Positions 4,877 through 49,677 are shown, counted from the first letter of the stretch. The stretch is DNA of 64,000 bases from Vicinamibacterales bacterium (GCA_041394705.1 JAWKHS010000025.1:6157-70156); one strand, 5' to 3'. Numbers and translations: made by a program. The notes: a model not told the origin generated them from the letters alone.

Positions 4877-4878
4877 GC

Positions 4879-4892
4879 GGCGCTTCGGCGCT
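4879..4892 (+). terminator. small GC hairpin with UUCG loop just after the GT-C stop (possible terminator or processing site)
   Basis: ggcgc-ttcg-gcgct immediately 3' of the TGA at 4874-4876. No U tract follows. Confidence 0.2.
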
Positions 4893-4915
4893 ACCATGGA
4901 ACGGGAGGCCGTTCC

Positions 4916-6919: not shown

Positions 6920-6964
6920 CCGCGGGCGGCACCCCGGCGGTCCCGCTCGGGACGCGAGCTCGCG

Positions 6965-8962
<1,998 letters not shown>

Positions 8963-25023: not shown

Positions 25024-25064
25024 CATCGGGCTCGGGACCCGCCATGTCCCGGGAGGGGAGCGGC

Positions 25065-25508: not shown

Positions 25509-25548
25509 TCCGTCGCCGCGGCCCGGTGCGGCGGCGGCGCCCACCCCG

Positions 25549-27420: not shown

Positions 27421-27427
27421 TCGGTTC

Positions 27428-27436
27428 TGGTATAGT
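27428..27436 (+). promoter_or_regulatory. extended -10 promoter element TGgTATAGT
   Basis: TGGTATAGT lies 26 nt upstream of the ATG at 27462, with SD GGAGGG at 27451-27456. No clear -35. Confidence 0.35.
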
Positions 27437-27461
27437 GCGGTCTGACCCGAGGAGGGTCCCA

Positions 27462-28157: not shown

Positions 28158-28203
28158 GCGGCGCGCCGGCCGGCCCCGGCGCATCCCTCCACATGCGGAT
28201 GAT

Positions 28204-28229
28204 CCGGGGACGCGATCCGCGCCCCCGGG
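28204..28229. terminator. GC-rich hairpin between convergent genes (candidate bidirectional terminator)
   Basis: ccggggacgcg-atc-cgcgcccccgg read directly. About 10 bp stem with one bulge. No flanking T/A tract. Confidence 0.35.
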
Positions 28230-28239
28230 CAGGCCTCCA

Positions 28240-29526
28240 CTAAGTCGTCGCGAACGGGGCCTCGAGCGACCGGCTCTGCGGCGTCATGAGCGCCGCGCCG
28301 TCCTCGGTGATGTACATGTCGTCCTCGAGGCGCACGCCGAACTCGCCGCGGATGTAGATGCCGGGCTCGTCGCTGAACGTCATGCCGGGCGCGAGCGGGA
28401 GCGTGTTGCCTTTCACGAGGTACGGCCACTCGTGGCCGTCCATGCCCATGCCGTGGCCGACGCGGTGCGTGAAGTACTTGTAGCCAGGGCCGTAGCCGGC
28501 GTCCTCGATCACCTTCCGCGCCGCCGCGTCCACGGCCTCGCACGGCACGCCCGGCCGCGCCGCCTTCAGCGCCGCGGTCTGGGCCGCGAACTCGATCTCG
28601 AACACCTTCTTCATCTTGTCGGTCGGCCTGCCGAGCAGGAACGTCCGGCTGATGTCGGACTGATAGCCCTCCACCGCGCATCCGCCGTCGATGAGGATGA
28701 TGTCGCCCTCCTTGATGACCTGGGGCGTGATCGAGCCGTGGGGCAGGGCCGAGTACTCCGCCGTCTGCACCGAGGCGCCGCCCGGGTAGCCGAGCTTGTC
28801 GTGCGCGGCCGAGATCAGGCGCTGGAAGTCGTTCTGGGTCATGCCCGGCGCGAGGGCCTTCCACGCCGCCTCGTACGCCTTCAGGGTCACGGCCGACGCG
28901 TGCTTCATGAGCGCCAGCTCGTGCTGGTCCTTGACCGCGCGGCAGCCCGCCGTCACCGGCGTCCCGCTGGCCAGCGTCAGGCCGGGCGCGGCCTTCGCGA
29001 GCCCGTCCGAGAAGACGTGCCGCACGGTCTCCTCGATGCCGAGGCGTCCGGTGGAGATGCCGCGGTCCTTCAGGCCCTGCGCGACGCGCGCGTACGGGCT
29101 CTCGTGCTCCTCCCACGTCCGCACGTCGGGCGTCCCCGTGAACGGGCTCGTCGCGAACTGCTCGCGCGCGCGGTCCTCCTCGAAGGCCGGCGTCACGACG
29201 AACGGCTCGCCCGACTTCGGAATCACCAGCGTGAACAGACGTTCGCTCAAGCCCCAGCGGATGCCGCTGAAGTACACGAGCGACGTGCCGCCGGTGAGCA
29301 TCAGCGCGTCGAGGCCGTTGTCGGCCATCAGGCGCCGCGCCTTGTCGACGCGGCTCCGGCGCTCGTCCTTCGTGATCGGCGTGGCCGTCCCGCGCATCGA
29401 CGACAGCGAGGCGATCGAGGGCGGCAGGGCCGCGCCGGCCTGCTCGGCCCGCGCGACGGAGAACGGCGACCCGAGCGACCCGGCGGCCAGGGCGCCGGAA
29501 GTGATGAGCGAACGGCGGGAAATCAT
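28240..29526 (-). CDS. TAT-signal M24 family Xaa-Pro peptidase
   Basis: ATG 29526, 6 nt after AAGGAG. 428 aa. Twin-arginine MISRRSLITSGALAAG. Metal ligand blocks DGGCAVEGYQSDISRT and HRVGHGMGMDGHE. Confidence 0.9.
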   Translation of the reverse strand: MISRRSLITSGALAAGSLGSPFSVARAEQAGAALPPSIASLSSMRGTATPITKDERRSRVDKARRLMADNGLDALMLTGGTSLVYFSGIRWGLSERLFTLVIPKSGEPFVVTPAFEEDRAREQFATSPFTGTPDVRTWEEHESPYARVAQGLKDRGISTGRLGIEETVRHVFSDGLAKAAPGLTLASGTPVTAGCRAVKDQHELALMKHASAVTLKAYEAAWKALAPGMTQNDFQRLISAAHDKLGYPGGASVQTAEYSALPHGSITPQVIKEGDIILIDGGCAVEGYQSDISRTFLLGRPTDKMKKVFEIEFAAQTAALKAARPGVPCEAVDAAARKVIEDAGYGPGYKYFTHRVGHGMGMDGHEWPYLVKGNTLPLAPGMTFSDEPGIYIRGEFGVRLEDDMYITEDGAALMTPQSRSLEAPFATT

Positions 29527-29629
29527 GGGCGGCTCCTTCGCGTCACAGTCTACCGCGCGGCGGCCGGCGGGGCGGGGCCGCGGCCCGCGCGGCCAAGGCC
29601 GCCGGCGGCGGCTCGGACCTGCGCCGCGA

Positions 29630-30748
29630 TCAGTGGCCGAGGGCGTCGGCGATCCACCGCGCGGCCACGTCCGCACCGTCCACACGGGCCCGTGCGGCGG
29701 GACGCGCGGAGGCGGCCAGTCCGTCGAGGGCGTCCTGCCAGCGTCCGGCCAGGAGCGCGGGCTGCGGGAGGTAGGCGCAGCGGACGAGGCCCGGCATCTC
29801 GCGGACGAGGACCTCGTACTCGACGAAGTGACCGCGGTCCGTGTAGAGGACGGCGGTGTCGTTGGCCGCGCACTCGCTGACGATGCCGTAGCCCGGCTTC
29901 GTGACGACGACGTCCACTGCGGCGACGACGTCCTCGTAGCGCAGGCCCATGGCGTACATCGCCGGCTCGTCCAGCGGGTGGATCGCCCCGCGCGGCGCGG
30001 CGGGACCGACGGGCGACCGGTCCGGGCCGAACGGGACGCTCGCGCTCACGAGCAGCGTCCAGCCGCGCGTGCGGCTGAGGGCGTCGAGGTCGATGCCGGA
30101 CACGCCGTAGCCGCCGAACGAGACCAGCGCCAGCGGGCCGGGAGGCAGACCGAGCCGGGCGCGCGTATCGTCGGGGGCGTGGCGGGCCCGCCGCGCGATG
30201 AGCGGGAGGTCGACGATGTCGGAAATGGTCTCGAACCCGCCGTGCAGCGGCAGCCGGAAGGCGCGGCCGGCGCGCCGGTACGCCTCGCCGAGCGCGTCGG
30301 CGGACGGGCCGCCGCCCGGATACCCGCGGAAGATCCAGTCCCAGGTGAAGTTGCCCAGCGCCATCGCGGGGACCCCGGCCAGCCGCGCGGCCTCGAGGCC
30401 CAGCGGGGGAATGTCGGCCATGACGAACGCCGCGCCGACGTCCTGGAGGTACGCGGCTTCGTCGGCCGCCAGCCGCGGCAGGTCGCGCACGTAGGCATCC
30501 ACGCGGCGGATGGTCTCATCGGCGTCGAGGCTCAGACTGTCCCGCTGGACGACGCCGGGATCGGTGTCGAGTGGTTCGACGGCCACGGGCGCACGCGCGG
30601 TGAGGTCGAACAGCCACCGCGGCGCGGCCGTCCGGACCCGGATCGGCCGGTCGGGCGCGATCGCCGCCAGCGCGTTGATGACCTCGATCGACCGCGAGGC
30701 ATGGCCGAAGCCGTGCCCGGAGATGTAGTAGACGAGCGGACCGCCCAC
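29630..30748 (-). CDS. GT-B fold glycosyltransferase (GT28/GT1-like)
   Basis: 372 aa. N-terminal YYISGHGFGHASR, C-terminal VVTKPGYGIVSE. Confidence 0.72.
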   Translation of the reverse strand: MGGPLVYYISGHGFGHASRSIEVINALAAIAPDRPIRVRTAAPRWLFDLTARAPVAVEPLDTDPGVVQRDSLSLDADETIRRVDAYVRDLPRLAADEAAYLQDVGAAFVMADIPPLGLEAARLAGVPAMALGNFTWDWIFRGYPGGGPSADALGEAYRRAGRAFRLPLHGGFETISDIVDLPLIARRARHAPDDTRARLGLPPGPLALVSFGGYGVSGIDLDALSRTRGWTLLVSASVPFGPDRSPVGPAAPRGAIHPLDEPAMYAMGLRYEDVVAAVDVVVTKPGYGIVSECAANDTAVLYTDRGHFVEYEVLVREMPGLVRCAYLPQPALLAGRWQDALDGLAASARPAARARVDGADVAARWIADALGH

Positions 30749-30754
30749 GAGCGC

Positions 30755-33148
<2,394 letters not shown>

Positions 33149-33226: not shown

Positions 33227-33682
33227 ATGGCCCTCGACGAACGCGCCTTCTTCAACGAACGGCCCGAACAGCGCACCGGCCGCTTCACGTGCCCCCGGTG
33301 CCGCCGCACGAACGACTACTCCCTCCGCTGGGTCCGGCGCACGAAGAAGGACCGGCTGCCCGGCAACGCCGACGAGCGCGACCGCGCGAAGTTCGCGAAG
33401 CTGCGCGATCACCTGATTCGCGTCGACGACGAACTCACCTGTAAGACGTGCGGCAAGCGCTTCGAGATCCCGTCGATGCACTCGCTGGTCTTCGTGGACC
33501 AGATCGAGGGGCTCCCCCGCGTGGACGACGAGGACGACGCTCCGGATGCGGCGCCGGCCGGGACGCGTCCCGGCGCTAGTACAGCCCCGGCACCAGGCGC
33601 CAGCGCACCTGGCGGCAGTACGCCGAGTACGCCGGCCCCGCGGCAGCGGCGAGGCTACGCTCCTCCCAAGGCATGGCGATGA
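33227..33682 (+). CDS. small zinc-ribbon protein (CPRC...CKTC), hypothetical
   Basis: 151-aa ORF divergent from lon. High GC3 for about the first 105 codons. The last 107 nt overlap the convergent gene and lose the GC3 bias. Confidence 0.5.
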   Translation: MALDERAFFNERPEQRTGRFTCPRCRRTNDYSLRWVRRTKKDRLPGNADERDRAKFAKLRDHLIRVDDELTCKTCGKRFEIPSMHSLVFVDQIEGLPRVDDEDDAPDAAPAGTRPGASTAPAPGASAPGGSTPSTPAPRQRRGYAPPKAWR

Positions 33683-34289
33683 GCAGGTAGGCCGTCGACA
33701 CGACGGCCGCCACCGCGCGGTCGACCGTCATGGGCGACGCGCCGAACACGATCAGGACCCAGCCCAGGTAGATGGGGTGGCGCACCATCGTGAACGGCCA
33801 CACGACGCGGATCCGCGTGGGGGTGGCATGGCCCGTGGCCTGTCGGATGCCGGCGAGTTCCCGCGCGTCGAGCACCCGGGCCCCGGCCAGGCTCAGCGCC
33901 ACGCCCGAGGCCTGCAGCCCCAGCAGCAGCCACGACAGCGGCGGCGCCGCCGAGTACAGGACCCCTGGCACGCGCCGCCAGGTGGCGCAGACCAGCGCCA
34001 GCAGGGCCGAGGCGATCCACACGTACGACGAGCGCTCGAGGCGGGGCGAGACCACCTGCTGCCAGCGCTCGCGAAGGCCCGTCCGCACCATCACGCTGTG
34101 GTGCACGGCGAAGAGGGTGAACGTGCCGACGTTCCAGAGCACGGCCCCGGCGACCGACGCGCGCGGTGGGCCCGGCTCATCCACCACCGCGTAGTAGAAC
34201 CACGCGGCGTAGCCGAGGGCGGCCGCGGCGCCGAGCGCGCCCAGCCAGGCCACGACGGTCTCGACACGTGAAGCGGACGGCGTGGTCAT
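33576..34289 (-). CDS. membrane methyltransferase, ICMT/PEMT fold
   Basis: ATG 34289 inside track ORF 33576..35912. 237 aa, about 5 TM helices, FTMVRHPIYLGW (RHPxYxG) motif. Confidence 0.8.
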   Translation of the reverse strand: MTTPSASRVETVVAWLGALGAAAALGYAAWFYYAVVDEPGPPRASVAGAVLWNVGTFTLFAVHHSVMVRTGLRERWQQVVSPRLERSSYVWIASALLALVCATWRRVPGVLYSAAPPLSWLLLGLQASGVALSLAGARVLDARELAGIRQATGHATPTRIRVVWPFTMVRHPIYLGWVLIVFGASPMTVDRAVAAVVSTAYLLIAMPWEERSLAAAAGPAYSAYCRQVRWRLVPGLY

Positions 34290-34325
34290 CGGCGGGGCCG
34301 GGCGGGCGTCGTGCCGGGCGCCACG

Positions 34326-34334
34326 TATTATAGG
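34326..34334 (+). promoter_or_regulatory. AT-rich -10-like box TATTATAGG upstream of the ketosynthase gene
   Basis: The only AT-rich stretch in the divergent region. It lies about 30 nt upstream of the GTG at 34365. Confidence 0.3.
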
Positions 34335-34364
34335 AATCTCGCGCGGGCGCCCGCGCCCTCGGCC

Positions 34365-35633
34365 GTGACCCCGCCTCGCATCGTCATCTCCGGTATCGGC
34401 GTCGTGTCCACGTTCGGCGTGGGCCGTGAGCGCTACTGGGACCACGTGTCCCGGGGCGCCAGCGGCACGCGCGCCGTCACCGAGTTCGACGTCTCCACCT
34501 ATCCCTGCCGGGTGGCCGCCTCCGTGCCTCCGGTGGACATCTCGGCCGCGGTCGAGGTGGACGGCGAGGCCGCGGACGGGTGGACGTCGCGCGCGGACCC
34601 GAAGCGCTACTCCCGCGCCGCGCTCTTCGGCGTGCTCGCCGGACGCGAGGCCTGGCAGGATGCCGGCCTCCGCGTGGACGAGCCGGGCGCCGGAGTCATC
34701 GTGGGGACCGGGGGCGGCGGCATCGACGTGACCGAGTACGGCTACCGCGAGTTCTTCACGAACGGCGGCCGGCACGTCACGCCGTACGCGATCGCCATCG
34801 GCATCTGCGGCATGGTGTCGAGCGAGATCTCGATGTCGCTCGGCCTGCACGGCATCAGCCACGTGCTGTCCACCGGCTGCACCTCGTCCACCGACGCCAT
34901 CGGGTATGCGGCCTCGCTGTTGAGGGCGGGGGACGCCGACGTACTGCTCACGGGCGGCGTCGATGGCTGCGTCCTGCCGGGCATGCTCTACGGCTTCGGC
35001 CGGATGCGCGCCGTGTCCACGCACTACAACGACCGTCCGGCGGAGGCGTCCCGGCCGTTCGATCGGGGCCGCGACGGCTTCGTCCTCGGCGAAGGCGCCT
35101 GGATGATCGCGCTCGAGCGCGAGGACCGGGCTCGCGCCCGCGGCGCCCGGATCTACGCGAGCGTGGATGGCTACGCCTCGACCTGCGACGCGTACCATCG
35201 GGTGCAGATGGACCCGGACGGACGCGAGATCGTGCGGTGCATGGAGACGGCCCTCGCCAGGGCGGGGTGCGCCCGGGAGCGGATCGGCTACGTGAACTAC
35301 CACGGCACGTCCACGCCCCTGAACGACGCGGTCGAGGCGCGGTGCACGCGGCTCGCCTTCGGCGCGCACGCCGATCGCCTCGCCGGATCGTCGACCAAGT
35401 CCATGATCGGCCATCCACAGGGGGCGAGCGGGGCGGCCGGCGTCGTGGCGACGGCCCTGGCGCTGGCGCGGGGGTTCCTGCCGCCGACCATCAACCTCAC
35501 CGACCCGGATCCGTCGTGCGATCTCGACTTCCTGCCGATCACGGGCCGCGCCGCGCAGGTCGAGGCCGCCCTCTGCAATTGCCTCGGGTTCGGATCGAAG
35601 AACAGCGCCCTCGTGCTCGGCGCCATCGGATGA
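34365..35633 (+). CDS. beta-ketoacyl synthase, KAS-II (FabF)-like, stand-alone
   Basis: 422 aa from GTG 34365 (VTPPRIVISGIG is a typical KS N-terminus; track alternative start 34311). Cys-His-His triad blocks STGCTSS, YHGTSTP, IGHPQGASG. Confidence 0.9.
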   Translation: MTPPRIVISGIGVVSTFGVGRERYWDHVSRGASGTRAVTEFDVSTYPCRVAASVPPVDISAAVEVDGEAADGWTSRADPKRYSRAALFGVLAGREAWQDAGLRVDEPGAGVIVGTGGGGIDVTEYGYREFFTNGGRHVTPYAIAIGICGMVSSEISMSLGLHGISHVLSTGCTSSTDAIGYAASLLRAGDADVLLTGGVDGCVLPGMLYGFGRMRAVSTHYNDRPAEASRPFDRGRDGFVLGEGAWMIALEREDRARARGARIYASVDGYASTCDAYHRVQMDPDGREIVRCMETALARAGCARERIGYVNYHGTSTPLNDAVEARCTRLAFGAHADRLAGSSTKSMIGHPQGASGAAGVVATALALARGFLPPTINLTDPDPSCDLDFLPITGRAAQVEAALCNCLGFGSKNSALVLGAIG

Positions 35634-36793
35634 CCGCCGGGATGGCCCGCCAGGACGACGTGGTGATCGTGGGCGGCGGACCGGCGGGGGCGCTGGCCGC
35701 GCTGCTCCTCGCGCGGCGCGGCTACCGCGTCCGCGTGTTCGAGCGCGCCAGGTTCCCGCGGCCGAAGCTCTGCGGGGACACCCTGAACCCCGGCGCGCTG
35801 GCAACGCTGGCCCGCCACGCCGACATCGCGCCCCTCCTGGCGCTCGGGCGTCCGCTCCACGGCATGCGTCTCTCGGGGACGGGCGGCCCGGCCGTGGAGG
35901 CGCGGTATCCACGGGGCCTCGCCGGCCTCACGGTCGTGCGCCGGGATCTCGACGACGCGCTGCTGCGGCAGGCCGCCGCCGCCGGCGCCCTCGTCGAGGA
36001 CGGCGTGCTGGTGCGCGGCGCGGCGCGGGGCGGCGAGGCGGTGGACGGCGTGATCGTGGCCACCGCGCAGGGCGACCGCGCCCACCCGGGCCGGCTGGTC
36101 GTCGGCGCCGACGGCCGGACGTCGGCCCTTGCCGGCGGGCTGGGGCTCGCGTGGACGCCGCGGGAGCCGCGCCGGTGGGCGTTCGGCGCCTACGCCGAGG
36201 GCGTCGACGGCATGGCGGCCGACCTGGGCGAGATGCACGTCCGCCGCGGGAGCTACCTGGGCCTGGCGCCCGTGGCCGAGGGCGTGACCAATGTCTGCGT
36301 CGTGGTGCCGCGTGCGGCGGCCGCGCGGTTCGGCGCCTCGCCGTGGCAGGCGATGCGCGCGGCCGTCGCCGACGACCCCGCGCTGTCGGCCCGGCTGGCG
36401 GGCGCGCGCCCGGTGGCGCGCGTCGTGTCGCTCGGCCCGATGGCTCGCGACATCCGGGCGGCGGGCGTCCCCGGCCTGCTGCTGGCGGGCGACGCGGCCG
36501 GGTTCATCGATCCCATGACGGGCGACGGTCTGCGCCTGGCGATCGACGGCGCCGTGCTCGCCGCCGACCTCGCGGCCGACGTGCTCGACGGCCGGGTGTC
36601 GCGCCAGGGGGCCGCCGACGCGCTGACGCGGCGCCGAGCCCAGGCCTTCGCCGCCAAGTGGCGGTTCAACCGCACGGTGCGCCGTCTCGTGGACGCGCCT
36701 GCTGCCGTCCGCGCCGCCGTCGGTCTCGCCGAGATCTGGCCGGGCCTGGCGCAGGCCCTCGTCGGCTATGCCGGCGACCTCGCCCTGGCCTGA
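35630..36793 (+). CDS. FAD-dependent oxidoreductase, geranylgeranyl-reductase family
   Basis: ATG 35630 overlaps the KS stop (ATGA). 387 aa. VVIVGGGPAGA, KLCGDTLNPG, LLLAGDAAGFIDPMTGDGL. Confidence 0.88.
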   Translation: MTAGMARQDDVVIVGGGPAGALAALLLARRGYRVRVFERARFPRPKLCGDTLNPGALATLARHADIAPLLALGRPLHGMRLSGTGGPAVEARYPRGLAGLTVVRRDLDDALLRQAAAAGALVEDGVLVRGAARGGEAVDGVIVATAQGDRAHPGRLVVGADGRTSALAGGLGLAWTPREPRRWAFGAYAEGVDGMAADLGEMHVRRGSYLGLAPVAEGVTNVCVVVPRAAAARFGASPWQAMRAAVADDPALSARLAGARPVARVVSLGPMARDIRAAGVPGLLLAGDAAGFIDPMTGDGLRLAIDGAVLAADLAADVLDGRVSRQGAADALTRRRAQAFAAKWRFNRTVRRLVDAPAAVRAAVGLAEIWPGLAQALVGYAGDLALA

Positions 36794-37324
36794 GTGCCGA
36801 TGCCGGTGAGCGCCATCATCGCGTGTGGCACCCTGGCCGCCGTGCTCGCCGTGATGGCGGGCGAGGCCGCGCTGTCGGCCTACAACGCCAGCGTGCTCCG
36901 GGCCCGCGGTGCGCTCGAGCCGCCGGGCGACGTCTACCGCACGATGCAGTGGGCCTATCCCGCCGGCTTCGTGGCCCTGGCCGTCGAGGGCGGCCTCACC
37001 GGCCCCGCGCCCGCCGCCGCCCTCGCGGCCGGTCTCGTCGTGTTCGGCCTGGCCAAGGCGCTCAAGGCGTGGGCGATGGCCACCCTTGGCTGGCGGTGGT
37101 CCTTCCGCGTGCTCGTGCCGCCCGGACTCCCGCTCGTCGCGACGGGGCCCTACCGCCTCCTGCGGCACCCGAATTACGTGGCCGTGATCGGCGAGATCGT
37201 GGGGGCCGCGGCGATCGTCCACGCGCCCGTCAGCGGCGTCCTCTTCCTCCTCGGCTTCGGCTGGCTCCTGTGGCGCCGGGTCACGATCGAGGACCGCGCC
37301 CTCGGGCGCGACCCGGTAGGATGA
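36794..37324 (+). CDS. isoprenylcysteine carboxyl methyltransferase (ICMT) family membrane protein
   Basis: 176 aa. Starts directly after the previous stop (GTG 36794; alternative ATG 36800). PYRLLRHPNYVAVIGE motif. 4-5 TM helices. Confidence 0.82.
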   Translation: MPMPVSAIIACGTLAAVLAVMAGEAALSAYNASVLRARGALEPPGDVYRTMQWAYPAGFVALAVEGGLTGPAPAAALAAGLVVFGLAKALKAWAMATLGWRWSFRVLVPPGLPLVATGPYRLLRHPNYVAVIGEIVGAAAIVHAPVSGVLFLLGFGWLLWRRVTIEDRALGRDPVG

Positions 37325-38763
37325 GCTGGATGCCGTCCGATTCCCGGTCTCCCAATCGTGGCGGCGGGCCGGACTCACCGCGCGGCCTCGGAGCGATCGA
37401 CGCGGCGATTCTGGCGCTGGGCGCCGTGGCCGCGTCGGTGGCCGTCACCGGGGGCTTCCGCGTCGAACTGCCTGGAGTCCGGCTGTCGGTGACGTCGTGG
37501 GCGCGCGTGGCCCTGCTGGCGGGGGGGCTTGCGGTCCTGCGGCACGTCTGGCGGCGGTCGCCGGCGCTGCCCGTCGCGGTCTGGCGCCGCGTCGCCGCGT
37601 GGCGGCGGGACGAGGTGACGCGCGCCACCTGGCCGCTCGTGGTGACCACCCGGATCGGCGTCCTCGTGGTCGGCCTGCTGGCCGTGTATGCGTTCGGCTA
37701 CCCGGACGGGCGATCGTTGCTCAGGGTCGGGGAGGGCGAAGTCGCCAACCTGCCGGCGCGCTACGACGCGGGCTGGTATCTGAGCATCGCCTCGCGCGGC
37801 TACGAGTACCGCCCCAACCGCGTCGACGTGCAGCAGAACCTGGTCTTCTTCCCGGCGTTTCCTGTCGTGATGCACGGCGCGTCGCTGCTGTTGGCCCGGC
37901 AGTTCGTGTGGAGCGGAACGCTCGTGTCGATCCTGGCGTTCGCGTGGGCGCTTCGCTACCTGTTCCGTCTGGCGCGCGAGCTGATGGGCGACGAACGGGC
38001 CGCGACGGCGGCGGCGTTGCTGGCGGCGTATCCCTTTGCCTTGTTCTACAGCGCGCCGTATACCGAGGCCCTGTTCCTGCTCGCCATGCTGGGCGCATGG
38101 TGGCACGCGCGGCGGGACGAGCGGTGGGCCGGGTTCGGGTGGGGGCTCGTCGCCGGCCTGACCCGACCGAACGGCTGTCTGCTGTCGGTCCCCCTGGCGC
38201 TGATGGCGGTGGCTCCGCTCTGGAGTGAGGGCCGCTTCCGACGGCCGCCGGGCGGATGGGGGGCCCTCGTCGACCGGCTCGTCATCGCCGCGGCGCCGGG
38301 TCTCGGGATGTTGATCTATTCGGCCTACGTCTACGACAAGACGGGCGATCCGTTCATGTGGATCCGTCTGCAGGCGGCCTGGGGACGCGAGAATCGCGGC
38401 GTCGCGGCGTTCATCGGGAACGAGTGGGAGACGATCGGCGCCGTCGGGCTCTACGACTACTCGACCGGCAACGTGCCCAATCTCCTGAACGCCCTCGGCG
38501 CCCTCCTCTGCACGGCCGCGATCGTGCCGGTGTGGCGGCGCTTCGGCCTGCCCGCCGCCAGCGTCATCGTGCTGAACCTCGTGCCGTCGATCGCCACCGG
38601 CGGCTGGCTGTCGGTGGGCCGGGCCACCGCGGTGCTGTTCCCGGTGTTCCTCTGGCTCGGCGATGCCGTGCCCGCCCGCCACCGGACGCTCTGGCTCGTC
38701 GCGTTCGCGGCCCTCCAGGCGTTCGCGGCGTCGCTGTTCTTCACCTGGCGGCAGCTGTTCTGA
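37321..38763 (+). CDS. polytopic GT-C protein, PIG-V/GT76-like mannosyltransferase family
   Basis: ATG 37321 overlaps the previous stop (ATGA). 480 aa. DAGWYLSIA and NLVFFPAFPVVM blocks typical of PIG-V-like proteins. The family call is from memory. Confidence 0.72.
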   Translation: MSWMPSDSRSPNRGGGPDSPRGLGAIDAAILALGAVAASVAVTGGFRVELPGVRLSVTSWARVALLAGGLAVLRHVWRRSPALPVAVWRRVAAWRRDEVTRATWPLVVTTRIGVLVVGLLAVYAFGYPDGRSLLRVGEGEVANLPARYDAGWYLSIASRGYEYRPNRVDVQQNLVFFPAFPVVMHGASLLLARQFVWSGTLVSILAFAWALRYLFRLARELMGDERAATAAALLAAYPFALFYSAPYTEALFLLAMLGAWWHARRDERWAGFGWGLVAGLTRPNGCLLSVPLALMAVAPLWSEGRFRRPPGGWGALVDRLVIAAAPGLGMLIYSAYVYDKTGDPFMWIRLQAAWGRENRGVAAFIGNEWETIGAVGLYDYSTGNVPNLLNALGALLCTAAIVPVWRRFGLPAASVIVLNLVPSIATGGWLSVGRATAVLFPVFLWLGDAVPARHRTLWLVAFAALQAFAASLFFTWRQLF

Positions 38764-38852: not shown

Positions 38853-41372
38853 ATGCTGTCACCCGTCGCACTTCGCCGCTGCGGTGCCGTCCTGGCGATG
38901 TCGGTCGCCTGTCTGGCCGCGCCCGGTCCCTGGCACCCCGCCGCCCATGCTCAGCGGACGGCGGATCCGCGCGAGGCCGCCGCCGACGCGCTCGACCACG
39001 GCCGCTACGAGCAGGTGCAGAGCGCCCTGGCCCAGCTGCCGGCGGACGACATCGGCGCCGCCGTCCTGCGCGCGCGGGCCCTCGTGGCGGTCGGGAAGTA
39101 CGCCGACGCGGAGCAGGCCCTCCTTCCCGCGGCCACGCGCAACGTCACCGGCGACGCGATGGTCGAGCTCGGCCTCGTGCAGCGCATGCAGGGCAAGCGC
39201 GAGGGCCTCCGCGCGCTGTCGATCGTCCTCTCGCGCGATCTGCTGGCGGGATCGGCAGCCGAGTACGTCCGCGCGGGGCGTGCGGCGCAGGCCCTCGGCC
39301 GCCTCCAGCAGGCCAACGACTTCTTCCGCCAGGCGGTGGCCCAGGCCCCCACCGACGTCGCCGCGAACGTCGCCTGGGGTGAGCTCTTCCTGCAGGGCCA
39401 CGAACGCGCGGAGGCCGCCCGGTCCTTCCAGGCCGCCCTGCGGACCGATGCGGAGCATCCCGGCGCGCTCATGGGGCTCGCGCGGACCATGGCGGAAGAG
39501 AACCCGCCGGCGGCGCGGAAGCTGGCCGCGCAGGTCCTGTCGATCAATCCGAACGCCGCCGACGCGCGTGTCCTGCTCGCGGAGCTCGCCCTCGACGACG
39601 TCAAACGCGACGAGGCCCGTGAGGACGTCGACAAGGCGCTGGCCGTCAACCCGAACCACTTCGTGGCGCTGTCGCTCAAGGCCGCCATCGCGTGGCTCGA
39701 GCGGCGCCCGGAGGAGGTCACGGCCACCACCGACGCCATCCTCAAGCTGAACCCGACCTACGGCGAGGTCTACCGGGTGATGGGCCAGGTCGCCGGCCGG
39801 AACTACCGCTTCGAGGAGGCGGCCGAATTCGCTCGGCGGGCGCTGACGATCGACCAGTCGAACTGGCGCGCGTTCGCGGACCTCGGCGCCCACCTGATGC
39901 GCACGGGCGACGAGCGCGGCGCGCGGCGGGCGCTGGAGACGGCGTTCCGCGGCGACCCGTTCGACCGCGTCACCTACAACCTGCTGAACCTGCTCGACAC
40001 GCTCGACGGCTTCGAGACGATTCGCGAGGGCGACATGGTCATCCGCCTGCACGCGGACGAGGCTGCCGTCATGCGCGAATACGTCCCCGCGCTGGCGCGC
40101 GAGGCGCTGGCGTCGCTCTCGAAGCGCTGGAACTTCACGCCGGCCGGCCCGATCCTCATCGAGATGTTTCCGAGGCACGACGACTTCGCCGTGCGCACGC
40201 TCGGCCTGCCGGGCATGATCGGCGCCCTCGGCGCCTGCTTCGGCAAGGTGGTCACCCTCGACTCACCGCGCGCGCGACCGCCCGGTGAGTTCAACTGGGG
40301 CGCCACGCTGTGGCACGAGCTCGCGCACGTCATCACGCTGCAGTTGTCGAAGCAGCGCGTGCCGCGGTGGCTCACCGAAGGGATCTCCGTCTGGGAGGAG
40401 ACCCGCGCGCGCCCGGCCTGGGGCCGCGAGATGGAAGTGACCTTCGCCAGCGCCCTGAACGCCGGCCAGGTGATGAAGCTGCGCGACCTCAACGCCGGGT
40501 TCAGCAGCCCGCAGCTCATCTCCCTGGCGTACTACGAGGCGTCGCTGCTCGTGGAGCACATCGTCGCGCGCTTCTCCGAGCCGTCGCTCCGCGAGCTGGT
40601 TCGCGTGTTCTCCGAGGATCTCGACACCGAGGCGGCCGTCACGCGCGTGCTCAAGGTGAGCCTCGACGACCTCCAGGGCAGCTTCGACGGGTTCCTCGAC
40701 GAGCGCTTCGGACGCCTGCGACGCGCGCTCGCCGCGCCGGAGGGGTTCGATCCCTCCGCGCCCCTCGACCGGCTGCGCGCGGCCGCCGCCGCGAATCCCG
40801 GGAGCTTCCCGGTGCAGATGGCGCTCGGCCTCGCGCTCGAGAAGGGCGAGCCCGACGCCGCCATCGGCGTCTACCGGAAGGCCGCCGAGCTCGTGCCGAT
40901 CGCGACCGGCGCGGAAAGTCCGCAGGCGCGCATCGCGGCGCTGCTCACGGCCAAGGGCGACACGGCCGGCGCCGCCCGCGCGCTCGAGACGCTGACCACG
41001 GCCGATCACACCGATGTCGCCTCGGCCCGCCAGCTCGTGGGGCTGCTCGACCCGGAGACCGACGGGCCGCGCCGCCAGGCCGCGCTCGCCAAGGTCGTGG
41101 CGATCGACCCGTTCGATGCCGCAGCCCACACCGAGATCGGCCGGTCCGCGCTCGAGGCGGGACGGCTGCCCCAGGCGATTCAGGCGTTCCGCGTCGCGGT
41201 GGCCGCCGGGCCGCAGGACAGAGCCGGCGCGCACGCCGACCTGGGCGAGGCGCTCGAGAAGGCCGGATCCAAGGCCGACGCGAAGGCCCAGGCGCTCCAG
41301 GCCCTCGAGGTCGCGCCGACCTACGTGCGCGCCCAGGAGCTGCTGCTGCGTCTGGTGGAGTCGCCCCAGTGA
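38853..41372 (+). CDS. secreted TPR-repeat protein with central peptidase-MA (gluzincin) domain
   Basis: ATG 38853 (alternative GTG 38850) inside track ORF 38256..41372. 839 aa. Signal peptide. TPR-like repeats on both sides of LWHELAHV...RWLTEGISVWEE (nt 40314-40379). Confidence 0.85.
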   Translation: MLSPVALRRCGAVLAMSVACLAAPGPWHPAAHAQRTADPREAAADALDHGRYEQVQSALAQLPADDIGAAVLRARALVAVGKYADAEQALLPAATRNVTGDAMVELGLVQRMQGKREGLRALSIVLSRDLLAGSAAEYVRAGRAAQALGRLQQANDFFRQAVAQAPTDVAANVAWGELFLQGHERAEAARSFQAALRTDAEHPGALMGLARTMAEENPPAARKLAAQVLSINPNAADARVLLAELALDDVKRDEAREDVDKALAVNPNHFVALSLKAAIAWLERRPEEVTATTDAILKLNPTYGEVYRVMGQVAGRNYRFEEAAEFARRALTIDQSNWRAFADLGAHLMRTGDERGARRALETAFRGDPFDRVTYNLLNLLDTLDGFETIREGDMVIRLHADEAAVMREYVPALAREALASLSKRWNFTPAGPILIEMFPRHDDFAVRTLGLPGMIGALGACFGKVVTLDSPRARPPGEFNWGATLWHELAHVITLQLSKQRVPRWLTEGISVWEETRARPAWGREMEVTFASALNAGQVMKLRDLNAGFSSPQLISLAYYEASLLVEHIVARFSEPSLRELVRVFSEDLDTEAAVTRVLKVSLDDLQGSFDGFLDERFGRLRRALAAPEGFDPSAPLDRLRAAAAANPGSFPVQMALGLALEKGEPDAAIGVYRKAAELVPIATGAESPQARIAALLTAKGDTAGAARALETLTTADHTDVASARQLVGLLDPETDGPRRQAALAKVVAIDPFDAAAHTEIGRSALEAGRLPQAIQAFRVAVAAGPQDRAGAHADLGEALEKAGSKADAKAQALQALEVAPTYVRAQELLLRLVESPQ

Positions 41373-42205
41373 CGGCCGACGACGGGGAACGCCGGCGGCG
41401 GCGTGCCCGCGGTCCGGGCCCGGTGCTGGCGGCGCTCCTGGTGCTCGTCGTGCCGGCCGTGTCCTCGCTGGCGCGCGGCGCCGCGGCGCAGCCCGGCGTG
41501 TTCAAGGAAGAGCGCTTCGCCGGCCTCCAGTGGACGTTCGTCCGCGTCAAGTACACGCCGACGACGGGGGACCTCGCCATGCGGACGCGCTTCGGCTTCT
41601 GGGACGATCCCTGGGCCATCGACGGCCCCGCCGCCGATCAGAACCTCTCGCGCCGCGTCCAGACGGCCACGGCCATCGAGGTGGGCGAGCCGCTCGCCAT
41701 GGCCCTCGACGATCCGCGCCTCTGGCAGTATCCGTGGCTGTACCTCGTCGAGCCGAGCAACGTCGTCATGAGCGACGCCGAGGCCGCCACGCTCCGCGAA
41801 TTCCTGCTGCGGGGCGGGACGCTCACCCTCGACGACTTCCATGGCTCGTTCGAGTGGGAGCTCACCACGCGCTGGCTCGGCAAGGTGTTCCCCGACCGGG
41901 AGGTCGTCGAAATCGCGCCGCCGCACCCGATCTACACCTCGTTCTACCAGCTCGATCGTTACCCGCAGGTGCCGGGCGTGGGCTCGTTCCTGAACGGCCG
42001 TACCTGGGAGAAGGGCGGCTACACGGCGCACCTGCGCGGCATCCTTGACGACACGGGCCGCCCCATGGTGCTCATCAACTGGAACACCGACATGGGCGAC
42101 GGCTGGGAATGGTCCAACGCCGACGAGTATCCGGGCTACCTGAAGTGGACGTCGGTCGCCTACCAGATGATGATCAACGAGATCGTGTACACGCTCACAC
42201 ACTAG
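41369..42205 (+). CDS. DUF4159-like protein (GATase1-like fold), signal peptide
   Basis: GTG 41369 overlaps the previous stop (GTGA). 278 aa. LWQYPWLYLVEPSNVVMSDAEAATLREFLLRGGTLTLDDFHG block. Confidence 0.82.
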   Translation: MTADDGERRRRRARGPGPVLAALLVLVVPAVSSLARGAAAQPGVFKEERFAGLQWTFVRVKYTPTTGDLAMRTRFGFWDDPWAIDGPAADQNLSRRVQTATAIEVGEPLAMALDDPRLWQYPWLYLVEPSNVVMSDAEAATLREFLLRGGTLTLDDFHGSFEWELTTRWLGKVFPDREVVEIAPPHPIYTSFYQLDRYPQVPGVGSFLNGRTWEKGGYTAHLRGILDDTGRPMVLINWNTDMGDGWEWSNADEYPGYLKWTSVAYQMMINEIVYTLTH

Positions 42206-42213
42206 GAGCGGGG

Positions 42214-42233
42214 CCCGGGGCTCGGGACCCGGG
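42214..42233 (+). other. 6-bp GC hairpin followed by GCTTTCG between the DUF4159-like gene and moxR (possible attenuator)
   Basis: CCCGGG-gctcggga-CCCGGG then gctttcg, read directly. Confidence 0.2.
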
Positions 42234-42255
42234 GCTTTCGAAGGAAGCGGCGCGC

Positions 42256-43266
42256 ATGAATCGGACGACGGACCTACACGGCGAAGACCTCGCGTCGCGG
42301 GTGGCCGCGGGGCGGGCCAGGATTCTCGAGCAGCTGCGGCTGGTGATCGTCGGCCAGGACGAGGTGGTCGACCAGGTGCTCATCGCGCTCTTCACCGGCG
42401 GCCACTGCCTGCTCACGGGCGTGCCCGGCCTGGCCAAGACGCTGCTCATCAAGACGCTCGCGAACATCCTCGACCTGAGCTTCAAACGCATCCAGTTCAC
42501 GCCGGACCTGATGCCCGCCGACATCACGGGCACCGAGATCCTCGACGAGGCCGACGGCGTGCGCGCCCTCCGCTTCGTGCGCGGGCCGATCTTCGCGCAG
42601 ATCCTGCTGGCCGACGAGATCAACCGGACGCCGCCCAAGACGCAGGCGGCGCTCCTCGAGGCGATGCAGGAGTTCCACGTCACGGCCGCCGGGCGCACCT
42701 ACGCGCTCGACCGCCCGTTCTTCGTCCTGGCCACCCAGAACCCGATCGAGCTGGAGGGCACCTACCCGCTGCCCGAGGCGCAGCTGGACCGGTTCATGTT
42801 CAACGTGACGATGTCGTACCTGTCGGAGGACGACGAGGTGAAGGTGGTCACCGAGACCACCGGCGGGCGCCGCCCCCAGCCGGTCCACGTGTTGAGCGGC
42901 GAGGACATCCTGGCCTTCCACGACGTGGTCCGCGAGGTGGTCGTCGCCGACGACGTCGCTCGCTACGCCGTCCGCCTGGTGGATGCCTCGCGGCCGGGCC
43001 GCGGCCCGCGGCTCGACTTCGTCGAGAAGTGGGTGAAATGGGGCGCCGGGCTCCGCGCGTCCCAGGCGCTCATCCTCGGTTCCAAGGCGCGCGCGCTCAT
43101 GCACGGACGCTTCCACGTGTCGGTCAAGGACATCCAGGCGCTCGCCAAGCCGATCCTGCGCCACCGGGTGATCCCGAACTTCTACGGCGAGGCCGAGGGC
43201 ATCACGCCCGACATCCTCGTGGACCGCCTCCTCGGCGCGATCCCCCCGCCCGCGAGCGGGTTGTGA
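42256..43266 (+). CDS. MoxR-family AAA+ ATPase
   Basis: ATG 42256, 8 nt after GAAGGAAG. 336 aa. Walker A GVPGLAKT, Walker B LLADEINR, ATQNPIE. Confidence 0.95.
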   Translation: MNRTTDLHGEDLASRVAAGRARILEQLRLVIVGQDEVVDQVLIALFTGGHCLLTGVPGLAKTLLIKTLANILDLSFKRIQFTPDLMPADITGTEILDEADGVRALRFVRGPIFAQILLADEINRTPPKTQAALLEAMQEFHVTAAGRTYALDRPFFVLATQNPIELEGTYPLPEAQLDRFMFNVTMSYLSEDDEVKVVTETTGGRRPQPVHVLSGEDILAFHDVVREVVVADDVARYAVRLVDASRPGRGPRLDFVEKWVKWGAGLRASQALILGSKARALMHGRFHVSVKDIQALAKPILRHRVIPNFYGEAEGITPDILVDRLLGAIPPPASGL

Positions 43267-43270
43267 AGCC

Positions 43271-44161
43271 ATGGCCGCCCCCTCGCGCTACCTCGACCCA
43301 GGAGTGCTCGCCCGGCTGGGCACGCTCGATCTGAAGGCCAAGACGGTCGTCGAGGGCGTGCTGGCCGGCCTGCACCGCAGTCCGCGTCGGGGCTTCAGCG
43401 TCGAGTTCGCCGAGTACCGCCAGTACCTCCCGGGCGATGCGCTCTCCACGATCGACTGGAAGGTGTTCGCCCGCACCGACCGCCACTTCGTGAAGAAGTT
43501 CGAGGAGGACACCAACCTCGACTGCCACCTGCTGCTCGACGTCAGCAGTTCCATGCAGTACGGCTCGCACGCGGTCACCAAGCGCGAGTACGGCTGCTAC
43601 CTGGCGGCGGCGCTCGCCTACCTGATGCACCATCAGCGCGACGCCGTGGGCCTCATCGCCTTCGACGAGGACATCGTGCACCGCGTGCCGCCCTCGGCCA
43701 GGAGCGGCCACCTCCGCACGGTCCTCCTGGCGCTCGAGCGCCTGCCGTCGGGGTCGCGGACCAACGTCGCCAAGCCGCTCGGCGATCTCGCGAAGGTCCT
43801 GTCCAAGCGGGGACTGGTCGTCGTGATCTCGGACCTCCTGGACGATCCCGACCGCGTCATCCGCGGGCTGAAGCACTTCCGCCAGCGCGGCACCGACGTC
43901 ATCGTCTTCCACCTCCTGGATCCGCAGGAATTGCGCTTCACGTTCTCCGATGCCGCGCGCTTCCGCGATCCCGAGTCGTCCAACGAGGTCTTCGCCGACC
44001 CCGCCGTCGTGCGCGAGGGCTACCTGGCGGCCGTGCAGGGCCTGGTCGGCACCTACCGGCGCGAACTGGGCGGCGCCGGCGTGGACTACCACGTGCTCGA
44101 CACCTCGCAGCCGCTGGACGTGGCCCTCATGTCGTACCTGACGGCGCGGGCCAGGAGCTAG
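43271..44161 (+). CDS. DUF58 protein (VWA-like MoxR partner)
   Basis: 296 aa. GFSVEFAEYRQYLPGDALSTIDWKVFARTDRHFVKKFEEDTN signature. Confidence 0.9.
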   Translation: MAAPSRYLDPGVLARLGTLDLKAKTVVEGVLAGLHRSPRRGFSVEFAEYRQYLPGDALSTIDWKVFARTDRHFVKKFEEDTNLDCHLLLDVSSSMQYGSHAVTKREYGCYLAAALAYLMHHQRDAVGLIAFDEDIVHRVPPSARSGHLRTVLLALERLPSGSRTNVAKPLGDLAKVLSKRGLVVVISDLLDDPDRVIRGLKHFRQRGTDVIVFHLLDPQELRFTFSDAARFRDPESSNEVFADPAVVREGYLAAVQGLVGTYRRELGGAGVDYHVLDTSQPLDVALMSYLTARARS

Positions 44162-44167
44162 GGGCCG

Positions 44168-46075: not shown

Positions 46076-46097
46076 GATACGAAGAGCGGCATTTTCC

Positions 46098-49673: not shown

Positions 49674-49677
49674 CCGG

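Follow-up and report, generated by a model that had tools for sequence, protein, structure and literature searches.

A soil acidobacterium of the order Vicinamibacterales carries a conserved five-gene locus (33576-38763) inside the 64-kb stretch of DNA that was analysed as a whole (the window). Its genes, defined by GC3 frame analysis combined with ORF calls, comprise a divergently oriented gene, g28, followed by genes for a ketosynthase (KS), a flavoprotein, an ICMT-family methyltransferase (ICMT) and a PIG-V-like GT-C protein (Table 1). The junctions show that the four plus-strand genes are translationally coupled: the KS stop and the flavoprotein start overlap in an ATGA (35630-35633), as do the ICMT stop and the GT-C start (37321-37324), and the TGA stop of the flavoprotein gene (36791-36793) directly abuts the GTG start of the ICMT gene at 36794. 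A first-pass annotation of this DNA had described the same five genes with both overlaps, the abutting ICMT gene and the divergent g28, together with the motifs STGCTSS, YHGTSTP, IGHPQGASG, RHPNYVAV and RHPIYLGW; all of these were found again here.

Table 1. Features of the five-gene locus, in window coordinates
Feature	Position	Strand	Basis
g28, polytopic membrane protein, MddA-like/ICMT-fold methyltransferase candidate	33576-34289	-	profile scores, RHPIYLGW
Divergent intergenic region, 75 nt, with AT-rich island	34290-34364	.	sequence reading
KS, stand-alone FabF-like beta-ketoacyl synthase, 422 aa	34365-35633	+	PF00109/PF02801, triad
Class A FAD flavoprotein, 387 aa	35630-36793	+	FAD_binding_3, homology to type III PKS-operon FADs
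SrsB/BpsB-type ICMT-family membrane methyltransferase, 176 aa	36794-37324	+	PF04140, homology
PIG-V-like GT-C polytopic glycosyltransferase candidate, 480 aa	37321-38763	+	PF04188, PMT_2

The 75 nt that separate the ATG of g28 (34289) from the GTG of the KS gene (34365) span an AT-rich island, TATTATAGGAAT, set in a genome of 72% GC, and are presumed to act as a shared promoter region, a function that we infer; a scan of this region for the sigma-70 consensus returned no match. As to g28 itself, which had been put forward as a second ICMT, its RHPIYLGW motif and divergent orientation stand, but it stays below the curated thresholds: PF04140 gives 20.8 bits (cut-off 24) and NnrU 23.8 bits (cut-off 24.7), both just under, and the best match of all, the MddA-like NF045656, gives 131 bits against a cut-off of 270. 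A fold-level assignment to ICMT/MddA is nevertheless plausible. A divergent g28 homologue adjoins the KS gene in 62 of 63 colinear Vicinamibacterales loci and is missing from the KS operons of the other lineages examined.

The KS matches PF00109 (139 bits) and PF02801 (120 bits), and thus has the thiolase-type, two-domain ketoacyl-synthase fold of FabF/KAS II together with the full Cys-His-His triad claimed for it, formed by Cys172 (STGCTSS), His313 (YHGTSTP) and His350 (IGHPQGASG), all three of which align with the catalytic residues of FabF in 1j3n and 4ls6. Its length of 422 aa is that of nearly all its homologues. The best PDB match is FabF of T. thermophilus (1j3n, 321 bits), whereas the actinorhodin KS scores 246 bits, which places the enzyme closer to FabF than to the KS-alpha subunits of type II PKSs, even if its TGCTS-type active-site motif is, in our view, reminiscent of the latter. 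Is it, then, the housekeeping FabF of this bacterium? This identity was rejected. Against the FabF equivalog TIGR03150 the KS reaches 416.2 bits, under the cut-off of 493.75, its family relatives reach 423-449 and a canonical FabF representative (P0339) 647; the KS does clear the less strict cut-off of the PRK07314 subfamily (412 against 387). Two pocket motifs are altered with respect to FabF (GHPQGASG for GHLLGAAG and GFGSKN for FGFGGxN), and the family has signature motifs of its own, STGCTSS, CDAYHRV, GHPQGASGAAG and CNCLGFGSKN. In a crude NJ tree it is monophyletic, so that the placement proposed as a check on the earlier reading, here made with that tree and with profile scores, puts the KS outside the FabF equivalog and in a separate clade. 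When clustered at 50%, the clade reduces to one full-length cluster (P0241, 74%), accompanied by fragments; the motifs are also present in the full-length proteins that come next, at 48-51% identity. KS identities are 67-95% within Vicinamibacterales and 88-95% within Pyrinomonadaceae, and no other gene of the module comes near this degree of conservation. Taken together, the comparisons show, at the level of sequence, a KAS-II-type enzyme with an intact catalytic apparatus, whose family stands apart and is strongly conserved.

Searches of the 64 kb for genes encoding an ACP, a malonyl acyltransferase, KR/DH/ER enzymes, a CLF or a type III PKS found none. Pfam was run on almost all genes, and those at 25044-33148 were covered via synteny with the Pfam-annotated locus L001; likewise, tblastn with E. 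coli AcpP and a scan for PP-binding motifs gave no match, and the window holds a single KS gene with neither a second KS-like nor a PP-binding gene. The earlier claim that ACP, acyltransferase, KR/DH/ER and chain-length factor are absent from the window is thereby borne out. Two near-misses proved unrelated, namely a membrane Acyl_transf_3 O-acyltransferase (11192-12259) and an NDP-sugar dehydratase SDR (22510-23520) with a weak KR match. ACP and fab genes are lacking both from the window and from 164 related loci and, unlike FabF, the KS gene is not located in a fab cluster next to acpP in any of them; unlike a type II minimal PKS, it has no CLF, ACP, cyclase or KR gene beside it. Finally, five type III PKS sequences used as tblastn queries had no match in the window or in the 164 loci, and no type III PKS lies within 6-10 kb of the KS in any of about 150 loci.

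It is the two tailoring genes that bring type III PKSs into the picture. The ICMT, whose family assignment by the first-pass annotation is upheld by profile search (PF04140, 66 bits, cut-off 24; RHPNYVAV motif present), shares 52% identity over 81 aa of its catalytic half (E 3e-21) with its counterpart in a Streptomyces T3PKS-ICMT-FAD operon, and all four inspected PLSDB relatives, out of seven matches, come immediately after a type III PKS gene; judged by this homology, it is an SrsB/BpsB-type enzyme. To our knowledge, this type of ICMT acts only in heteroatom methylation.

The flavoprotein (FAD_binding_3, 74 bits) was originally called GGR-type, a label that holds in part. Its best NCBIfam family is indeed the geranylgeranyl-reductase superfamily TIGR02032, and Cys48, within an invariant K46-L47-C48-G49-D50 that is accompanied by a GxYLG motif, aligns with GGR Cys47 of Ta0516 (PVRCGEGL in 3oz2). 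An AF2 model (pLDDT 88) has halogenases and GGR as top Foldseek matches, with a TM-score of 0.75 against 3oz2. However, the TIGR02032 score of 141.5 bits is under the cut-off (158.8), and the YxWxFP motif of the GGR family (Ta0516, MenJ) is replaced by SYLGLAP, in which only the Tyr and the Pro are retained. Its operonic relatives, moreover, are described as hydroxylases: SrsC and HidB (PMC6669644, PMC10896814). It is 30% identical to a Streptomyces SrsC-like protein over 271 aa and 29% identical to the FAD enzyme of a Novosphingobium T3PKS operon over 364 aa, it has K-x-C-G-[DE] and GGYxGL-type motifs in common with the FADs of T3PKS operons, and in an NJ tree it mixes with these rather than with the GGR structure. 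These comparisons assign the flavoprotein to the FAD family of type III PKS-MT-FAD operons, although the GGR-type Cys that it retains makes a hydroxylase chemistry less certain. A flavin-dependent halogenase was also considered, as halogenases are the best PDB matches in both sequence and fold, and was rejected: WxWxIP is absent (GWLWYIP aligns with SYLGLAP) and halogenases do not have the Cys insertion.

In srsABC and hidABC-type operons, the head group, of the alkylpyrone/resorcinol type, comes from the condensing enzyme and is O-methylated by the methyltransferase and oxidised by a class A flavoprotein (PMC6669644, PMC10896814). The methyltransferase-oxidoreductase-type III PKS operon type is known from hidABC, which belongs to the cyanobacterial hierridins, and from Planctomycetes and Proteobacteria (PMC10896814). 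The present locus resembles srsABC of Streptomyces griseus and bpsAB in its ICMT of the same subfamily, its SrsC-like flavoprotein and the direct coupling of both to a condensing-enzyme gene. It differs in that a KAS-II/FabF-like KS replaces the type III PKS as scaffold enzyme, in gene order (KS-FAD-ICMT here, PKS-ICMT-FAD in srs) and in the attached GT-C and MddA-like genes. The srs operon and bpsAB, the latter from Bacillus subtilis, pair a type III PKS with an ICMT-family methyltransferase, in the presence or absence of a flavoprotein hydroxylase, and are associated with methyl ethers of alkylresorcinols/alkylpyrones and with alkylquinones. Since the tailoring pair of the present locus is homologous to the enzymes that partner type III PKSs in Streptomyces and Proteobacteria, the analogy with srs that had been drawn earlier amounts to true homology. 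Gene order and homology show the KS where the PKS would stand, in this locus as well as in other acidobacterial lineages, some of which have, in place of the ICMT, a class I methyltransferase of a kind that type III PKS operons typically contain too. The class I methyltransferases and FADs of such KS operons match, over nearly their full length, those of T3PKS-MT-FAD operons from Roseomonas, Mesorhizobium, Sphingobium and Novosphingobium (31-33% and 28-31% identity, respectively), and they also match those from Burkholderia, the operons compared being plasmid-borne proteobacterial ones; unlike the hid-type operons, the Pyrinomonadaceae and soil KS operons hold no type III PKS.

How much of this arrangement is conserved beyond a single genome? 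The order KS-FAD-ICMT-GT-C is colinear in 63 of 68 Vicinamibacterales loci, and insertions fall between the GT-C and the next gene, entering the module only once (L079). This conservation alone is weak evidence because the order is broadly syntenic: the downstream genes for a TPR-peptidase, DUF4159, MoxR and DUF58 keep their places in 59-70 of 75 loci as well. These implausibly linked neighbours, and the lone GT-C paralogues found at other loci, are what favours the view that the genes are functionally unrelated and stand together only through order-wide synteny. We regard it as very improbable, given the ATGA start/stop overlaps, the homology of both tailoring enzymes to partners from one kind of operon and, above all, the return of the combination elsewhere. 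In two Pyrinomonadaceae loci (L083 and L084), a KS of this family has behind it a class I methyltransferase not homologous to the ICMT, along with a flavoprotein of the same family as here, the same KS-class I MT-FAD set occurs in at least five metagenomic subclades (soil lineages), and L093/L096 hold KS-FAD(-ICMT). The recurrence in distant lineages, with another gene order and a non-homologous methyltransferase, is the stronger line of evidence when set against Vicinamibacterales synteny. The portable core is KS plus methyltransferase plus flavoprotein, and the five-gene set is specific to Vicinamibacterales. The first-pass annotation had stated that its reading would fail with a KS inside housekeeping FabF whose adjacency to the flavoprotein and ICMT genes is not conserved, or with ICMT/GGR assignments that fail under HMM search. 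Neither outcome was obtained: the KS lies outside, and the co-occurrence check it had suggested finds the adjacency conserved.

The locus therefore points, on the strength of these comparisons, to an uncharacterised membrane-lipid pathway. We tentatively read it as an srs/bps/hid-like operon for lipid biosynthesis in which the condensing enzyme is of another type; the favoured product, predicted by analogy, would be an O-methylated, oxidised lipid resembling an alkylpyrone or alkylresorcinol. The KS, having no ACP of its own, would draw on the housekeeping FAS for a fatty acyl-ACP and malonyl-ACP and extend the former non-reductively to a 3,5-diketo (or longer) acyl chain, which would lactonise or cyclise to an alkylpyrone- or alkylresorcinol-like lipid. 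Triketide lactones are known products of FAS and PKS systems in which ketoreduction does not take place. The SrsB-type ICMT might then O-methylate an enol or phenol in the membrane, and the flavoprotein might hydroxylate the ring towards a quinone, as SrsC/HidB, or, less likely, reduce a C=C bond. Compared with the earlier proposal that a condensing enzyme and a tailoring set build a methylated, reduced and possibly glycosylated lipid, the coupling of KS, methyltransferase and flavoprotein is retained, but the reductase role and the second ICMT hold only in part. The most specific form of our reading is that a stand-alone FabF-type KS, served by the housekeeping ACP and with neither CLF nor type III PKS, would itself build the scaffold of an alkylpyrone/alkylresorcinol/quinone-type membrane lipid, which would give Vicinamibacterales, Pyrinomonadaceae and several unassigned soil-metagenome lineages a third enzymatic way of making phenolic lipids, with periplasmic glycosylation by the GT-C in Vicinamibacterales. 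This is a serious candidate, if one on the doubtful side; we know of no KAS-II homodimer shown to build a pyrone or resorcinol.

Could the KS instead belong to core metabolism? It might be a core fatty-acid-synthesis paralogue of Acidobacteriota (e.g. FabB-like or a chain-length-specific FabF2), with the methyltransferase and the flavoprotein modifying its acyl product to a methoxy, hydroxy or methyl-branched chain instead of an aromatic head group, much as the synthesis of tuberculostearic acid follows a methylate-then-reduce logic. In 29 of the 42 metagenomic KS loci with at least 2 kb of downstream sequence, neither a methyltransferase nor a flavoprotein lies beside the KS, and this occurrence without tailoring neighbours, combined with its strong conservation, makes the enzyme look more like one of core metabolism. 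The FabF-like structures and profiles closest to it, the lack of a dedicated ACP, the flavoprotein Cys aligned with the catalytic-site Cys of geranylgeranyl reductases and a proteobacterial T3PKS-MT-FAD operon that is followed by a CFA-synthase-family gene all fit the same scenario. It fares less well with methyltransferases of which both types are partners of type III PKSs and one, the ICMT, is known only for methylating heteroatoms and is 52% identical to SrsB-type enzymes, or with a KS whose FabF equivalog score and pocket motifs deviate as described; we consider it unlikely, albeit credible.

A different division of labour is suggested by two proteobacterial T3PKS clusters, on Novosphingobium pLA3 and a Burkholderia plasmid, in which an ACP and a FabF-like KS are found within T3PKS-FAD(-MT) clusters, besides the PKS, so that a KS can be an accessory and not a replacement. 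The acidobacterial KS might accordingly do no more than provide or lengthen the fatty-acyl starter of a type III PKS whose gene lies elsewhere in the genome, the alkylresorcinol product of which would be tailored by the ICMT and the flavoprotein; type III PKS clusters have been reported in other Acidobacteriota (PMC11354219). Yet the KSs of these two clusters share only 30-38% identity with the present family, do not have its motifs and bring their own ACP, which is missing here, the tblastn searches around the KS found no type III PKS, and the KS sits exactly where the PKS does in canonical operons. This makes a starter-supplying role rather improbable.

What would follow if the KS were indeed the scaffold enzyme? 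Vicinamibacterales and Blastocatellia rank with the commonest bacteria of soils, and little is known of their lipids. A KAS-II enzyme joined to the tailoring pair of phenolic lipids would represent a new biosynthetic logic for membrane phenolic/quinone lipids and would yield a genome-mining rule for a cluster type beyond the rules based on type III PKSs, which, as far as we know, do not capture such clusters at present. It would also offer lipid biogeochemists candidate genes for unexplained acidobacterial lipids. Under any model, a highly conserved KS family with its own motifs makes a clean target for testing.

The weakest step of the proposed pathway concerns Vicinamibacterales only, where the PIG-V-like GT-C may add a sugar from a polyprenyl-phosphate donor at the outer face. 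The earlier PIG-V-like assignment is supported by scores above cut-off for PF04188 (42.6 bits, cut-off 22.4) and PMT_2 (28.6 bits), the match being a partial one of about 150 of 480 residues (approximately residues 146-298, PF04188 positions 59-205 of 443). The protein thereby resembles the PIG-V/GT76 GT-C mannosyltransferases, although searches of NCBIfam and PDB sequences gave no match that would link it to a curated name or a solved structure. The GT-C is missing from the KS-MT-FAD operons of other lineages. Because the whole Vicinamibacterales neighbourhood is syntenic, its linkage to the KS rests on this one order and on a weak GT87-like neighbour in L093 (19.8 bits). Within the protein, the stretch YDAGWYLSIASRGY resembles what we take to be the PIG-V loop motif.

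Gene calls for the module rest on GC3 frame analysis combined with ORF calling in a window whose GC content is 72%, and HMM searches bear out the assignments of the ketosynthase (KS), ICMT and PIG-V-like GT-C made in a first-pass annotation that had read the sequence alone and proposed a lipid pathway built from these enzymes, a geranylgeranyl reductase (GGR) and a second ICMT (see the table below). Every motif it quoted is found in the window sequence, and the junctions it described are there too: stop and start codons overlap as ATGA at 35630 and 37321, and the GTG start at 36794 directly follows a stop codon. It had also seen no ACP, acyltransferase, KR, DH, ER or chain-length factor (CLF), and indeed no ACP, malonyl acyltransferase, KR, DH, ER, CLF or type III PKS (T3PKS) was detected in the window by Pfam annotation and T3PKS tblastn, nor any ACP by AcpP tblastn and a PP-motif scan; for the genes between 25044 and 33148, the Pfam inventory was obtained through synteny with the Pfam-annotated related locus L001. 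The closest matches of the window proteins come from MAGs named Vicinamibacterales (Acidobacteriota), the KS being 95% identical to database entry P0001. Promoter and terminator consensus scans gave nothing useful, and PDB sequence searches returned no match for GT-C or g28 and only marginal ones for ICMT.

Features of the module and of its surroundings (window positions)
Feature	Position	Strand	Remarks
Envelope-glycan region	237-24028		large region
Proteins without Pfam match	5018-6919, 17486-18916, 18903-20384		large; within the envelope-glycan region
Fusion gene	25588-27420	+	610 aa; homocysteine S-methyltransferase and MTHFR domains (by synteny with related loci L001 and L002)
Small zinc-ribbon protein	33227-33682	+	CPRC...CKTC; 151 aa; Pro/Ala-rich tail
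g28	33576-34289	-	MddA-like, 131 bits against a cut-off of 270; slightly below Pfam ICMT and NnrU cut-offs
AT-rich gap	between g28 and KS		75 nt
KS	34365-35633	+	HMM match above curated cut-offs
Flavoprotein (FAD)	35630-36793	+	FAD_binding_3; geranylgeranyl-reductase family, 141.5 bits against a cut-off of 158.8
ICMT	36794-37324	+	HMM match above curated cut-offs
PIG-V-like GT-C	37321-38763	+	HMM match above curated cut-offs
Bat/MoxR-type operon	38898-51873		syntenic with the module in most Vicinamibacterales loci

Does the KS fall inside housekeeping FabF, an outcome that the first-pass annotation had named, together with unconserved adjacency to the GGR and ICMT genes, as a refutation of its proposal? 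With catalytic residues Cys172, His313 and His350, it has its best structural relatives by sequence in FabF (1j3n, 321 bits), followed by actinorhodin KS-alpha (246 bits) and FabB (~178 bits). On TIGR03150, the FabF equivalog model, it scores 416 bits against a cut-off of 493.75 and its nearest relatives 423-449 bits, compared with 647 bits for P0339, a canonical FabF of the representative library (43-45% identical). When 1.84 billion representatives were searched exhaustively with HMMER, the Vicinamibacterales KS formed one full-length 50%-identity cluster (P0241, 74%) plus fragments, and identity falls to 48-51% at the next full-length relatives (P0258, P0260 and P0262), which share with it the motifs STGCTSS and CDAYHRV, both unlike FabF; the family also has GHPQGASGAAG and CNCxGFGSKN where FabF has GHLLGAAG and SNSFGFGGxN. 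A crude NJ tree renders the family monophyletic and apart from three canonical FabFs, and the KS thus lies outside housekeeping FabF by both score and clade. Apparent KS-FAD fusions were discarded: database entry P0271 (579 aa, 55% identity), ending in FPRPKLCGDTLNPGAL, is a frameshifted read-through from a poor assembly, an artefact easily mistaken for a fusion protein, and in the related locus L093 the frames differ, marking the fusion ORF as a high-GC ORF-calling artefact.

To judge from sequence relationships, the two tailoring enzymes either descend from type III PKS phenolic-lipid operons or are common to both kinds of operon. Among plasmid-database sequences, the window ICMT is most closely related to ICMTs from srsABC-type operons of Streptomyces, in which genes for a type III PKS, the ICMT and an FAD monooxygenase follow one another in that order; identity is 52% over 81 aa (E 3e-21), and the stretch GPYRLLRHPNYVAV is identical. 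In two further relatives, from Rhizobium and Sphingomonas, the gene likewise overlaps a type III PKS stop codon. The window flavoprotein shares 30% identity with an SrsC-like protein over 271 aa and 29% with the flavoprotein encoded in a Novosphingobium T3PKS operon over 364 aa; it had no match in plasmids by tblastn at E 1e-10, and its link to T3PKS operons was reached solely via the ICMT and the proteins of Pyrinomonadaceae. The methyltransferase (MT) and flavoprotein of the latter match T3PKS-MT-FAD operons of Roseomonas, Mesorhizobium, Sphingobium and Novosphingobium, and the flavoprotein also matches a Burkholderia T3PKS operon (E-values 1e-22 to 1e-38). An NJ tree mixes the flavoproteins of KS operons with those of T3PKS operons and separates both from the GGR, halogenase and 3nix structures. 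Mutants of the srs system reportedly become penicillin-sensitive. Among the known enzymes of such operons, SrsA makes alkylresorcinols that SrsB methylates and SrsC hydroxylates (PMC6669644), and methyltransferase-oxidoreductase-T3PKS operons make alkylresorcinols in cyanobacteria (hidABC) and Planctomycetota (PMC10896814). Whereas srs, bps and hid operons use a T3PKS as condensing enzyme, the acidobacterial operon has a KAS-II enzyme in the place of the PKS, and across ~150 loci no T3PKS turned up within 6-10 kb of the KS. A T3PKS defines the srs/bps/hid group; the operon, which on testing proved to have none, resembles that group but is not a member; no description of a KS+ICMT+FAD cluster was found in the searchable literature.

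The label 'GGR reductase' fits the flavoprotein only in part. In a profile alignment its Cys48 aligns with the GGR Cys, a residue missing from halogenases; the score lies below the family cut-off, and YxWxFP is replaced, as is WxWxIP. Cys48 is in any case no proof of reductase chemistry, since the SrsC-like protein, a described hydroxylase, has the same Cys. With a confident AF2 model (pLDDT 88), Foldseek ranks together halogenases (FasV, TM 0.82), a Cytophaga flavoprotein and GGR (TM 0.75), a ranking that does not separate reductase, hydroxylase and halogenase; a halogenase identity was discarded on the evidence of the motifs.

What might such enzymes make together? Because the tailoring pair is of the T3PKS-operon type, a KAS-II enzyme stands where the PKS would be and there is no T3PKS nearby, we favour, with somewhat less than even confidence, a pathway in which the KS would extend a housekeeping acyl-ACP non-reductively to yield an alkylpyrone- or resorcinol-like lipid, which the ICMT would O-methylate, the flavoprotein would then oxidise and, in Vicinamibacterales, the GT-C might glycosylate. 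Chemically this is plausible, because triketide lactones are known products of FAS and PKS systems that lack ketoreduction. The earlier pathway idea survives in the main, with revisions to the reductase label, to the second ICMT and to how far the module reaches; g28 does resemble MddA, with a score below the MddA cut-off. Aryl-polyene, xanthomonadin, DarABC, BioC-type pimelate and VLCFA (acpXL) readings were set aside, as ACP, CLF, KR/DH and KAS-III, which we take to be the defining genes of these systems, are absent. Alternatively, the KS could supply the starter for an unlinked T3PKS, in keeping with two T3PKS clusters of proteobacteria in which an ACP is paired with a KS; the KSs of those clusters, however, are FabF-like and of a different family from the acidobacterial KS, and we consider this reading quite unlikely. 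The clusters, on Novosphingobium pentaromativorans pLA3 (L168, 2695-7678) and a plasmid of Burkholderia sp. PAMC 28687 (L170, 2054-6808), are of the type III PKS-FAD(-MT) kind with their own ACP and KS; the former and a Rhizobium locus (L173) contain a DUF2147 gene in addition.

A GT-C alignment, used to scan the species genomes of GTDB, yielded 80 loci. KS, FAD, ICMT and GT-C are colinear within 4.5 kb in 63 of the 68 that have enough upstream DNA, and the divergent g28 accompanies all but one of these (62/63); median identities are 77% for KS, 63% for ICMT, 53% for FAD, 50% for g28 and 48% for GT-C. Within Vicinamibacterales such conservation is little evidence alone, because synteny also extends to the genes downstream (TPR-peptidase, DUF4159, MoxR and DUF58; 59-70 of 75 loci); insertions between GT-C and the next gene in ~7 loci indicate a module boundary at that point. 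Lone GT-C paralogues occur at four loci; those at L068 (7836-11154) and L070 (7941-9509) are 43-50% identical and lie away from any KS, FAD or ICMT gene, and at L068 a second large polytopic membrane protein follows. At L079, a Doc/Fic toxin-antitoxin insertion of ~3.5 kb (3975-7497; toxin motif HPFVDGNKRIG) separates FAD from ICMT, the sole module interruption among 64 loci. Operon-bearing genomes that are complete or nearly so include chromosome OY970174.1 (L036), the 3.7 Mb contig CAWEBU010000006.1 (L010), the cultured Luteitalea pratensis and Vicinamibacter silvestris, and Pyrinomonas. About ten of the 80 records are named otherwise than Acidobacteriota or Vicinamibacterales and are taken to be mislabelled. 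Complete Vicinamibacterales-type modules (KS identity 68-81%) at L015, L030, L037, L040, L042, L043, L048, L063, L074, L075 and L080 stand in GTDB records titled Bifidobacteriaceae, Bifidobacterium breve, Acidimicrobiia, Cyanobacteriota or Betaproteobacteria, which are probably mis-binned or mislabelled MAGs.

Recurrence outside the order is stronger evidence than colinearity within it, and that the association reflects mere synteny of neighbouring genes appears highly improbable. In Pyrinomonadaceae (Blastocatellia; representative P0258), a class I methyltransferase and then a flavoprotein come after a KS 49% identical to that of the window; this flavoprotein is 30% identical to the window protein and has the same K-L-C-G-E and GGYxGL motifs. 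A metagenome scan with KS-family-specific patterns gave 80 further loci; the order KS-MT-FAD occurs in at least five metagenomic subclades, L096 has KS-FAD-ICMT, and in L093 a weak GT87-like membrane protein precedes KS-FAD. This recurrence across lineages implies a portable core of KS, methyltransferase and flavoprotein in which the methyltransferase has been displaced non-homologously; the five-gene module first described holds within Vicinamibacterales and shrinks to that core elsewhere. The KS family also exists independently of tailoring genes: neither methyltransferase nor flavoprotein follows the KS in 29 of 42 metagenomic loci with at least 2 kb downstream, and in one of the clades that lack them the KS usually lies beside a HemW-like radical-SAM gene and an MsbA-like exporter. 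Perhaps, then, the KS is a core FAS paralogue whose acyl product gets tailored, a reading that draws on its extreme conservation and frequently solitary occurrence and that we regard as unlikely.

Several other genes of the window deserve mention. The zinc-ribbon gene converges on g28, with 3' ends overlapping by ~107 nt, and 53 of 80 related loci encode the same protein with 59-96% identity, usually in the same place. A class I methyltransferase follows the fusion gene, and the MddA-like g28 lies a few kb away. The envelope-glycan region encodes two GT2 enzymes, two PMT_2-type GT-C proteins, two amine-oxidase-like flavoproteins, an LPG_synthase_TM protein, an Acyl_transf_3 O-acyltransferase and a sugar C-methyltransferase with NDP-sugar synthesis genes. 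The Bat/MoxR-type operon comprises TPR + Peptidase_MA_2, DUF4159, MoxR AAA, DUF58/VWA and BatA/VWA genes, together with a 1191-aa DUF4175-like protein and a GATase1-like/VWA protein.
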